Assembly: GCF_058153355.1 (NCBI RefSeq)
Contig: NZ_CM177019.1
Strand: one strand, 5' to 3'
Length of the DNA stretch: 64,000 nt
A model generated the notes under the pieces. The model was not told the origin of the DNA and searched no databases. It saw only the letters and a program-made list of their open reading frames with translations. Below, one piece after another: positions 1 through 1,229 of the stretch; the stretch's first letter is position 1; every line of letters begins with the position of its first letter. The position numbers and the translations under genes were made by a program.

Positions 1-120
1 CTTTTGCAACTCACCGACCGGCAACCCTTGTTCCCCCGCTTTGACCAGATGCTTAAATATGAACAAACGGGTCGGATGACCTAACTCTTTCAGTGCCTTA
101 GCGACCTCTTCCAATTGCAT
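1..120 (-). CDS. ArsR/SmtB-family transcriptional regulator, N-terminal part only (gene runs off the window start)
   Basis: Minus-strand translation from the ATG at 120-118 reads MQLEEVAKALKELGHPTRLFIFKHLVKAGEQGLPVGELQK, an ArsR-type winged-helix N-terminus; divergent from the permease gene. Not in the ORF track because it is partial. Confidence 0.5.
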   Translation of the reverse strand, partial: MQLEEVAKALKELGHPTRLFIFKHLVKAGEQGLPVGELQK

Positions 121-145
121 GTGTCACCCCCTCTGTCTGGTTGAT

Positions 146-205
146 ATTTCGATAATACCAGAAATATCTTGATCTGAACTTCATTTCGATTATTCTGGAA
201 ATATA
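146..205. promoter_or_regulatory. Two 22-bp near-identical direct repeats in the divergent promoter region, candidate operator for the ArsR-like regulator
   Basis: atttcgataataccagaaatat (146..167) and atttcgattattctggaaatat (184..205), 18/22 identical; the cores accagaa / ttctgg are mutually inverted. Confidence 0.35.
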
Positions 206-227
206 GTTTTATTCAATGAGGTTACTT

Positions 228-1229
228 ATGAGTAGTTGGCTTGCGATGCTGCAAGATGCCGTAGAGATGTTTGTGTTTCTCGCCGTCGAGCTTTCTTTGC
301 TGTTTATGGTGATTAGTGCCGGTGTCAGCCTGATAAGACAAAAGGTGCCAGACCATAAAATCCAGCAGATGATGGGGGCCAGAAAAGGGAGAGGCTATCT
401 CCTGGCTGCTCTGTTGGGAGCCGTTACCCCGTTCTGTAGTTGCTCGACAATACCCATGCTACGTGGATTGTTGTCAGCGAAAGCCGGGTTTGGTCCGACT
501 CTCACTTTTTTATTTGTTTCACCGTTACTTAATCCCATTATCGTCGGGTTAATGTGGGTGACCTTTGGTTGGAAAGTTACCTTGTTGTACGCGATTATCG
601 CCGCCGGCGTCTCCGTACTTGCCAGTATTATCTTGGATTCTCTGAGATTTGAACGTCATATCATTGCCAGTAAAAGCTCATCAGCAAATTGTTGCTCTCC
701 AGCCAAAACTTCGCCGGGGACGACATATACGCCAATAAAAGTGAGTTGCTGTAGTCCAGCGGCTAAAGCCATTGAGAAACCTGTAGTAAACTGTTGCAGT
801 ACCAAAGCTGTGGTAAGTATTAATCCCATAAAACTAGCCACCAAAGATGCGTTGCAACAGTTTAAAGATGTACTGCCATATCTTTTGTTAGGGGTATTAA
901 TAGGCTCTTTTATTTATGGCTTTATTCCCTCAGAGTGGATTGCCGCTCATGCAGGGGCAGATAATCCCTTCGCCATCCCATTGAGCGCCGTTGTCGGAAT
1001 CCCGCTGTATATCCGGGCAGAGGCGGTTATCCCTCTGGCATCTGTTCTGATGACAAAAGGAATGGGTCTGGGAGCATTAATGGCATTAATCATCGGCAGT
1101 GCCGGCGCAAGTCTGACAGAAGTGATATTACTTAAATCAATGTTCAGAATACCGATGATAGTTGCATTCCTGACGGTTATCTTAGGTATGGCTATCTTGA
1201 TGGGCTATTTGACTCAAATGCTATTTTAA
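228..1229 (+). CDS. ArsP-like (DUF318) membrane permease, putative organoarsenical/metalloid efflux permease
   Basis: ORF 216..1229; a GAGG Shine-Dalgarno precedes the second ATG at 228. Hydrophobic multi-pass protein with the TPFCSCS motif characteristic of ArsP permeases (AVTPFCSCSTIP) and a Cys-rich loop with three CC pairs. Confidence 0.65.
   Translation: MSSWLAMLQDAVEMFVFLAVELSLLFMVISAGVSLIRQKVPDHKIQQMMGARKGRGYLLAALLGAVTPFCSCSTIPMLRGLLSAKAGFGPTLTFLFVSPLLNPIIVGLMWVTFGWKVTLLYAIIAAGVSVLASIILDSLRFERHIIASKSSSANCCSPAKTSPGTTYTPIKVSCCSPAAKAIEKPVVNCCSTKAVVSINPIKLATKDALQQFKDVLPYLLLGVLIGSFIYGFIPSEWIAAHAGADNPFAIPLSAVVGIPLYIRAEAVIPLASVLMTKGMGLGALMALIIGSAGASLTEVILLKSMFRIPMIVAFLTVILGMAILMGYLTQMLF

Follow-up and report, generated by a model that had tools for sequence, protein, structure and literature searches.

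A candidate organoarsenical efflux cassette beside arsRBC in Escherichia coli: an ArsP-family permease divergent from an ArsR/SmtB regulator

The first 1,229 positions of a 64,000-nucleotide stretch of DNA (NCBI RefSeq assembly GCF_058153355.1, contig NZ_CM177019.1; the whole stretch is called the window below) hold a permease gene and, divergent from it, the beginning of a regulator gene. In this study, we found that the window comes from the chromosome of Escherichia coli, and that the ArsP_1 permease and its ArsR/SmtB-type regulator form a discrete presence/absence cassette next to the arsenic-resistance operon arsRBC. Judged from sequence comparison, the cassette probably serves the repressor-controlled efflux of trivalent organoarsenicals, that is methylarsenite (MAs(III)) or trivalent roxarsone (Rox(III)), and would thereby complement arsRBC; we hold this reading with moderate confidence. 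The cassette belongs to a known kind of module, to which we add the assignment of the sensor with its Cys73, a conserved probable operator, the variable number of cysteine pairs in the permease loop, and a predicted elevator-like fold with a cytoplasmic loop. The features discussed are the following.

1..120, reverse strand: 5' part of the ArsR/SmtB regulator gene, codons 1-40 (MQLEEVAKALKELGHPTRLFIFKHLVKAGEQGLPVGELQK), from translation; cut by the window edge
121..227, no strand: control region between the divergent start codons, 107 bp
146..165, no strand: candidate operator site 1, a 20-bp imperfect palindrome (ATTTCGATAATACCAGAAAT), from repeat search and cross-genus conservation
169..196, forward strand: putative permease promoter, with -35 TTGATC at 169-174, a 16-nt spacer and -10 TATTCT at 191-196
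183..202, no strand: candidate operator site 2, a 20-bp imperfect palindrome (ATTTCGATTATTCTGGAAAT), from repeat search and cross-genus conservation
228..1229 with the stop codon, forward strand: ArsP_1 (PF03773) permease, 333 aa, from the open reading frame, the RefSeq start and Pfam
426..446, forward strand: TPFCSCS motif, residues 67-73, at the break between short helices 52-66 and 71-83
642..824, forward strand: central hydrophilic, disordered loop with three vicinal Cys pairs, residues 139-199, from the sequence and the AlphaFold2 (AF2) model

Results

A presence/absence cassette adjoining arsRBC

By megablast, 2217 of 5426 complete E. coli genomes contain a match to window 1-1255, with identities of 97-99.6%. 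In two annotated genomes that carry the cassette the gene order is gorA, dinQ, arsR, arsB, arsC, regulator (reverse strand), permease, yhiS-like, slp, dctR, so that arsC directly precedes the pair and the pair adjoins arsRBC. K-12 MG1655, compared with a cassette-bearing strain, does not have the pair: its homology ends about 20 nt past arsC and restarts about 270 bp past the permease stop, and the DNA in between, about 300 bp, is unrelated. Because homology breaks off after arsC and resumes only beyond the permease, the pair is a discrete presence/absence cassette of about 1.7 kb.

The permease is a member of the ArsP_1 family

The longest open reading frame of the permease spans 216..1229 (337 aa), and the RefSeq orthologue starts at the second ATG, window position 228 (333 aa), which is preceded by GAGG at 218-221. 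An initial annotation, made from the letters alone, had seen here a metalloid-responsive module of an ArsP-like permease and a divergent ArsR/SmtB regulator, and homology searches with both proteins agree with it. The permease matches Pfam ArsP_1 with an E value of 4e-53, residues 9-330 lying on positions 3-293 of the 294-position model, and it is 32% identical to Campylobacter jejuni ArsP over its whole length (E 7e-54). The latter exports MAs(III) and Rox(III) and makes cells resistant to both, but has no such effect on As(III) (PMC6205960). No solved structure related to the permease by sequence was found.

The top NCBIfam matches of the permease were the SO_0444 Cu/Zn efflux family (NF033936, 110.7 bits, cut-off 300) and SaoE (NF040736, 84.7 bits, cut-off 325). 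The first would agree with an exporter of soft metal cations (Cd, Zn, Cu, Hg or Pb) akin to SO_0444, under a thiolate-sensing ArsR/SmtB repressor of the CmtR/CadC kind. SO_0444 is needed for growth under Zn and Cu stress (PMC3219624), some relatives of the permease have Cys-rich and His-rich extensions, and the regulator matches CmtR weakly. However, both scores fall below the curated cut-offs, that for SO_0444 far below, so the permease belongs to neither family. Moreover, the organoarsenical-specific C. jejuni ArsP scores in the same range on these models (94 and 103.5 bits), and six further relatives are likewise sub-threshold. The matches were therefore ruled out as evidence on substrate and indicate superfamily membership only. 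SO_0444 is also predicted to be under the adjacent SO_0443, a putative orthologue of the zinc-responsive ZntR (PMC3219624), which is a different kind of regulator, and no SAO ABC importer genes are annotated beside the permease. Taken together with the gene neighbourhoods described below, export of a soft metal cation seems quite improbable to us.

TPFCSCS and the cysteine-rich loop

The eight cysteines of the permease are Cys70 and Cys72, both in TPFCSCS, and three vicinal pairs in the central loop: Cys155/156 (690-695), Cys174/175 (747-752) and Cys189/190 (792-797), in the contexts NCCSP, SCCSP and NCCST. The initial annotation had reported this motif and these pairs, and had quoted the loop exactly. 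Its interpretation of both features has to be revised. TPFCSCS had been taken as a marker of organoarsenical permeases of the ArsP type, but it is nearly universal among PF03773 relatives: TPFCSCS(T) occurs in nearly all of them down to 30% identity, and it is nearly invariant in a set of 66. It conforms to 'cluster 2' of Yang et al. 2015, a C(S/T)C preceded by tPF (PMC4435449), and its Cys-Ser-Cys core is common to the SO_0444 Cu/Zn exporters and SaoE (bioRxiv 10.1101/2022.07.06.499078). What the motif marks is the thiol site of the superfamily, not a substrate.

The loop had been called an unusual insert. A hydrophilic insertion of about 100 aa between transmembrane segments 4 and 5 was, however, described for one ArsP class as early as 2010 (PMC2963123), and Cys-Cys or CxxxC motifs occur in the central loop throughout the subfamily. 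C. jejuni ArsP has SSCCS aligned with the first Cys-Cys pair of the E. coli permease, and marine members with short loops keep one GCxxxC motif. Both TPFCSCS and the Cys-rich loop are ordinary family traits. Among orthologues from Escherichia, Salmonella, Proteus, Enterobacter, Citrobacter and Aeromonas (298-377 aa) the membrane core is almost invariant, and it is the length and cysteine content of the loop that vary. The number of Cys-Cys pairs ranges from 0 to 4 among 128 distinct loops, in which Ser is the commonest residue on both sides of the pairs and S-C-C-S is the dominant motif. DNA repeats were considered as a cause of the variation in length; in the sequence that encodes the loop they are short and weak (10-15 nt, 73-91% identity) and, by themselves, insufficient.

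In a subgroup of relatives at about 35% identity (P0159, P0172, P0177 and P0187) TPFCSCS is replaced by TPLCTFS, the central loop carries a Cys-Cys plus His motif, and the N-terminus is extended by a tail of 80 residues that is acidic, His-rich and nearly free of Lys and Arg. This subgroup is possibly a cation-handling branch of the ArsP_1 family.

Predicted fold and topology of the permease

An AF2 model of the permease, built on 66 diverse relatives, reached a mean predicted local distance difference test score (pLDDT) of 88 and a predicted template modelling score (pTM) of 0.84. It has a helical core (2-144 and 200-332) and a disordered region between (145-199), with pLDDT about 50 at residues 150-190, and so matches the description of the ArsP family as two homologous halves parted by a hydrophilic loop of variable size (PMC7176098, PMC2963123). 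In the model TPFCSCS would sit at the tip of a re-entrant hairpin, and the Cys-Ser-Cys helix pair has a symmetric counterpart in the second half, helices 249-260 and 264-276. The permease is predicted to be an inverted-repeat transporter with two re-entrant hairpins and an elevator-like fold.

With hairpins, loop 1, loop 2, the central loop and loop 7 fall on the inside, and the mean number of Lys and Arg over the 66 sequences is 17.1 inside and 3.0 outside. The parallel 4+4 arrangement of the TOG-type description (PMC7176098) was rejected: in it the strongly basic loop 1 would face one side of the membrane and the basic central loop the other, and the means, 11.8 versus 8.3, show no clear positive-inside bias. 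The hairpin topology is preferred because it makes the charge distribution coherent, whereas four plain spans per half abolish the bias. An outward-facing N-terminus of the core fits the fusion variants, as some relatives have an additional N-terminal span behind a basic Cys-rich tail. One relative has a membrane-spanning N-terminal domain with Cys-Cys motifs, which we take to be MerT-like.

Topology prediction, which the initial annotation had proposed for placing the Cys-Cys loop, puts it on the cytoplasmic side. We infer from the model that the loop lies near a cytoplasm-facing Cys-Ser-Cys hairpin, an arrangement that would suit the capture and hand-off of a thiophilic substrate.

The regulator resembles AfArsR and SpArsR

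The divergent regulator reported by the initial annotation is present, although only its first 40 codons lie inside the window. Its complete sequence of 106 aa was taken from an E. coli genome that matches window 1-1255 at 99.6% identity; Cys73 and Cys91-Cys92 are encoded upstream of the window start. With 61.2 bits on NCBIfam HTH_metalloreg (cut-off 55), it is an ArsR/SmtB metalloregulator. It lacks the CVC-x2-C site that R773-type (Type 1) ArsR proteins have around the DNA-binding helix, residues 1-72 being free of cysteine; the neighbouring chromosomal ArsR carries ELCVCDLC.

The closest solved relative is AfArsR, a Type 2 (C-terminal) As(III) sensor from Acidithiobacillus ferrooxidans (PDB 6J05), with Cys91-Cys92 aligned with AfArsR Cys95-Cys96. 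In AfArsR, Cys95, Cys96 and Cys102 are the As(III) ligands, and SpArsR of Shewanella putrefaciens 200, which has no equivalent of Cys102, senses MAs(III) but gives no response to As(III) (PMC11868830). No cysteine follows Cys92 in the Escherichia, Salmonella, Aeromonas and Citrobacter regulators, which therefore have no counterpart of Cys102 either. The predicted model of the regulator consists of helices alpha1-alpha4, a beta wing and alpha5, with Cys73 in the second strand of the wing, directly ahead of alpha5, and Cys91/92 directly behind that helix. All three residues are conserved without exception in 33 regulators (48-100% identity) whose partners are related permeases. Compared with SpArsR by its description, the regulator shares the absence of a Cys102 equivalent from the ligand set and has the extra invariant Cys73. 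We propose that it is a thiol sensor of the AfArsR/SpArsR type with an additional invariant cysteine, an assignment that is new here.

In the closest reference genome codon 88 of the regulator (L001 7857-7859, outside the window) encodes Cys, giving C-x2-CC. The exact 60-mer around this codon occurred in 2 of the 5426 complete E. coli genomes; the search behind this figure picked up no more than 57 of them. Since the residue is Arg in all other orthologues examined, Cys88 was ruled out as a conserved third ligand.

The cysteines of the regulator bear on two other views of the cassette. It could be an additional exporter of inorganic As(III) or Sb(III), the loop of the permease giving the third thiol that is missing from the Cys-Ser-Cys site and the regulator sensing As(III) via Cys73'-Cys91-Cys92. 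Three cysteines are indeed invariant in the regulators, and Cys73 and Cys91/92 could meet in an antiparallel alpha5 dimer; many marine orthologues have CC-x4-C like the three-Cys AfArsR, and vicinal pairs do bind As(III) in ArsD. A back-up role in As(III) export was proposed by Castillo and Saier (PMC2963123). However, C. jejuni ArsP does not transport As(III) (PMC6205960), the host has ArsB directly alongside, the ArsH that co-occurs with some relatives acts on organoarsenicals and so points to these, and the Cys102 equivalent of AfArsR is missing from the enteric regulators. We consider this view unlikely.

The other view is a sulfur or redox-stress module, in which a persulfide or sulfite sensor like BigR or YgaV controls a permease for a sulfur compound. 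The regulator has sub-threshold similarity to BigR (38.6 bits, cut-off 155) and to the solved BigR and YgaV structures, and cysteine pairs can also sense oxidants. These matches, however, span only the generic winged-helix part, and the conserved cysteines correspond in the alignment to the arsenic site of AfArsR instead of the BigR pair. The loci inspected showed no genes of sulfur metabolism nearby, and a literature search gave no characterised sulfur substrate for the permease family. Such a module is highly improbable.

A probable, conserved operator between the divergent genes

Two 22-nt repeats had been proposed as the operator. The first was placed correctly, at 146-167; the second lies at 183-204, one position to the left of where the initial annotation had it, and the two are 82% identical. 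Each contains one of the 20-bp imperfect palindromes listed above. The 64-kb window has two occurrences of ATTTCGA-N8-GAAAT, both of them in this intergenic region, where 0.03 would be expected in the whole window, and two were reached in 1 of 100 shuffles; as the pattern was derived from both copies themselves, this count weighs little, and the independent support is conservation in other genera.

In an intergenic alignment of E. coli, Salmonella, Aeromonas and Citrobacter the two conserved blocks coincide with the two palindromes, separated by variable spacers. Two to three copies were also found in 4 of 5 marine intergenic regions (Pseudoalteromonas, Shewanella, Vibrio and Pseudomonas), where the proteins are about 50-65% identical to those of E. 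coli. The consensus is near ATTTCGA-N6-TCGAAAT and is perfect in one Vibrio copy; the fifth region, from Colwellia, has only degenerate versions (AATTCGA...) that the scan left unscored. Because the palindromes are conserved across genera, they are strongly indicated as the predicted binding sites of the regulator, and the proposal that the repeats form an operator gains strong support.

We infer a permease promoter at 169..196. Site 1 abuts its putative -35 and site 2 covers its putative -10. The TTGA of the -35 is invariant in a five-genus alignment, and TTGAC or TTGAT follows site 1 in the marine loci. With 8 of 12 positions matching the consensus, this promoter is not listed by a consensus scan, which gives instead TTGATA(141)-18-TATCTT(170) on the forward strand and TTGAAT(216)-16-AATAAT(189) on the reverse strand, both overlapping the palindromes.

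Neighbours of related cassettes

Orthologous pairs, 68-90% identical, adjoin ars operons in Salmonella, Aeromonas, Citrobacter and the S. Infantis megaplasmid. In Salmonella, arsRDABC, with or without arsH, is followed by regulator and permease within a mobile region; in Aeromonas the pair stands beside arsR-arsD-arsA-acr3-arsC; in Citrobacter both arsRDABC and the pair are inside a prophage. On the S. Infantis megaplasmid, which also carries CTX-M-65, the permease is divergent from regulator-arsH-sigma-arsD-arsA. Endozoicomonas shows the order acr3-arsD-arsA-permease-regulator. A close relative (60-80% identity) is found on conjugative plasmids of E. coli and Salmonella in about 630 PLSDB records, and one E. 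coli plasmid copy retains dinQ, the chromosomal neighbour of arsRBC, which suggests capture from the chromosome. In Acidovorax two Tn3-family transposase genes enclose just three annotated genes, those of the regulator, the permease and a recombinase, a layout in which the pair may be selectable by itself.

Across the enteric, Aeromonas and plasmid contexts, ars neighbours were present in all but one IS1-truncated E. coli plasmid copy, and czc, cad, mer or cop neighbours were never seen. This argues against the soft metal cation exporter considered above, although most pairs of 47-54% identity, mainly from marine gammaproteobacteria, are not linked to any of the six ars gene families queried and could be cited in its favour. 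The neighbours of these more distant pairs are not conserved. Linkage to ars was accordingly ruled out as a trait of the whole subfamily; it holds for the enteric/Aeromonas clade.

The Salmonella island (L004 and L005, positions 1-1900) has two ArsP paralogues: immediately upstream of the same arsRDABC there is another ArsP_1 permease, distinct from the first and 333 aa long, and after it a Thioredoxin_3 protein. An extracytoplasmic function (ECF)-type sigma factor gene (Sigma70_r2/r4) lies between this segment and arsRDABC. The organoarsenical-linked 'ArsE' is a Thioredoxin_3 (PF13192) protein (bioRxiv 10.1101/2022.10.17.512643).

Other features of the window

In other E. coli genomes homology ends at window 1255, beyond which two insertion sequences separate the permease from the yhiS-like gene. 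The two, which lie in window 1256-5200, are an IS4-family element, whose transposase scores 304.5 bits, and an IS66-family element with TnpA, TnpB and a transposase; the open reading frames are at 1441-2787, 2850-3197, 3194-3541 and 3561-5132. Frames equal in length to the IS4 and IS66 transposases are also present at 33622-34968 and 60081-61652. The yhiS-like gene at 5725-6948 is an intact frame of 407 aa with no NCBIfam match; in K-12 yhiS is a pseudogene split by IS5. Rfam matches at gathering level were the shuA/chuA thermoregulator (11564-11595, reverse strand), the small RNA ES205 (21266-21337), GadY (27117-27230) and the rdlD antitoxin (63759-63824). These matches and the reference annotation indicate that the window runs on through the chu haem-uptake and gad acid-resistance regions.

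Discussion

In the simplest scenario for organoarsenical efflux, a dimer of the regulator would occupy both 20-bp palindromes, which flank or overlap the divergent promoters, and shut off its own gene and that of the permease. A trivalent arsenical, most likely methylarsenite or a trivalent aromatic compound such as reduced roxarsone, would bind the thiols at the end of alpha5, Cys91-Cys92 and possibly Cys73 of the partner subunit, and release the repressor. The permease would act as an ArsP-type secondary exporter with its substrate site, Cys70-Ser-Cys72, at the tip of the membrane-embedded hairpin. The cytoplasmic Ser-Cys-Cys-Ser loop would capture the arsenical and pass it to this site for expulsion, and the neighbouring arsRBC would handle inorganic arsenite and arsenate, the cassette complementing it. 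K-12, which has no cassette, has been reported to be resistant to As(III) but sensitive to MAs(III) (bioRxiv 10.1101/2023.01.09.523296).

Several points weigh against organoarsenical efflux. A literature search found no experiment on this permease or any enteric orthologue, and according to a review the activity of ArsP has yet to be assessed in gut bacteria (PMC6953987). Identity to the sole characterised organoarsenical ArsP is only 32%, and the Cys-Ser-Cys motif is common to Cu/Zn exporters of the same superfamily (bioRxiv 10.1101/2022.07.06.499078). With the invariant Cys73 the sensor site could have three thiols and so respond to inorganic As(III); many marine orthologues have CC-x4-C, similar to the three-Cys AfArsR. 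Most pairs of 47-54% identity (Vibrio, Shewanella, Colwellia, Pseudoalteromonas and others) have within 10 kb none of arsB, acr3, arsA, arsD, arsH and grx-type arsC, the six families queried. Finally, the cytoplasmic side of the loop is predicted from a model and from charge counts.

Among known systems, C. jejuni ArsP, the prototype of TC 2.A.119, is alike in Pfam family, TPFCSCS, ars linkage and a hydrophilic mid-loop with Cys-Cys at the same position. It differs in layout: in the operon arsP-arsR-arsC-acr3, taken for comparison from a genome scan, C. jejuni arsP is the first of four co-directional genes and its ArsR is unlike the regulator here, whereas the E. coli permease gene stands alone, divergent from a dedicated AfArsR-like regulator. 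The loop has three Cys-Cys pairs in the E. coli permease and one pair plus a single Cys in C. jejuni ArsP. Plasmids of the pESI/R64 type have the same divergent pair, with a permease about 80% and a regulator about 95% identical, and the plasmid permease gene has already been named arsP (PMC6449608). The plasmid regulator, however, heads an operon with arsH, a sigma factor gene, arsD and arsA, while the chromosomal one is monocistronic beside arsRBC, and the two permeases differ in loop length and Cys-Cys number.

The regulator shares with AfArsR the vicinal Cys pair just after the C-terminal helix and with SpArsR the lack of a third Cys at the 102 position, a lack common to the enteric regulators. 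It is only about 30-35% identical to the two, and use of a residue corresponding to its extra invariant Cys73 has been reported for neither. The marine regulators, with CC-x4-C, differ in spacing from the CC-x5-C of AfArsR. The SO_0444 family and SaoE share the superfamily and the Cys-Ser-Cys core and differ in regulator type and gene neighbourhood.

ArsD offers a further lead. Its vicinal Cys pairs bind As(III) and pass it to the pump, and those of the ArsD beside the Salmonella orthologue (MCCST, TSCCGG and TSCC) resemble the NCCSP, SCCSP and NCCST of the permease. ArsD has no sequence homology to the permease, however, whose pairs sit in the transporter's own disordered loop. A more speculative proposal, which we place on the unlikely side, is that the Ser-Cys-Cys-Ser loop is a built-in ArsD-like domain for capture and hand-off, that the number of pairs tunes affinity or widens the substrates from two-coordinate organoarsenicals to three-coordinate As(III)/Sb(III), and that the regulators use an undescribed inter-subunit Cys73'-Cys91-Cys92 site.

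In summary, the current picture of arsenic resistance is unchanged, and an unstudied member has been filled in. About 40% of complete E. coli genomes carry the cassette. If it does confer resistance to methylarsenite or to feed additives of the reduced roxarsone type, its natural presence or absence would determine how well gut E. coli tolerate organoarsenicals, and it would be a plausible co-selection partner of antibiotic-resistance plasmids in poultry, and the regulator-operator pair could serve as a compact sensor of trivalent arsenicals.

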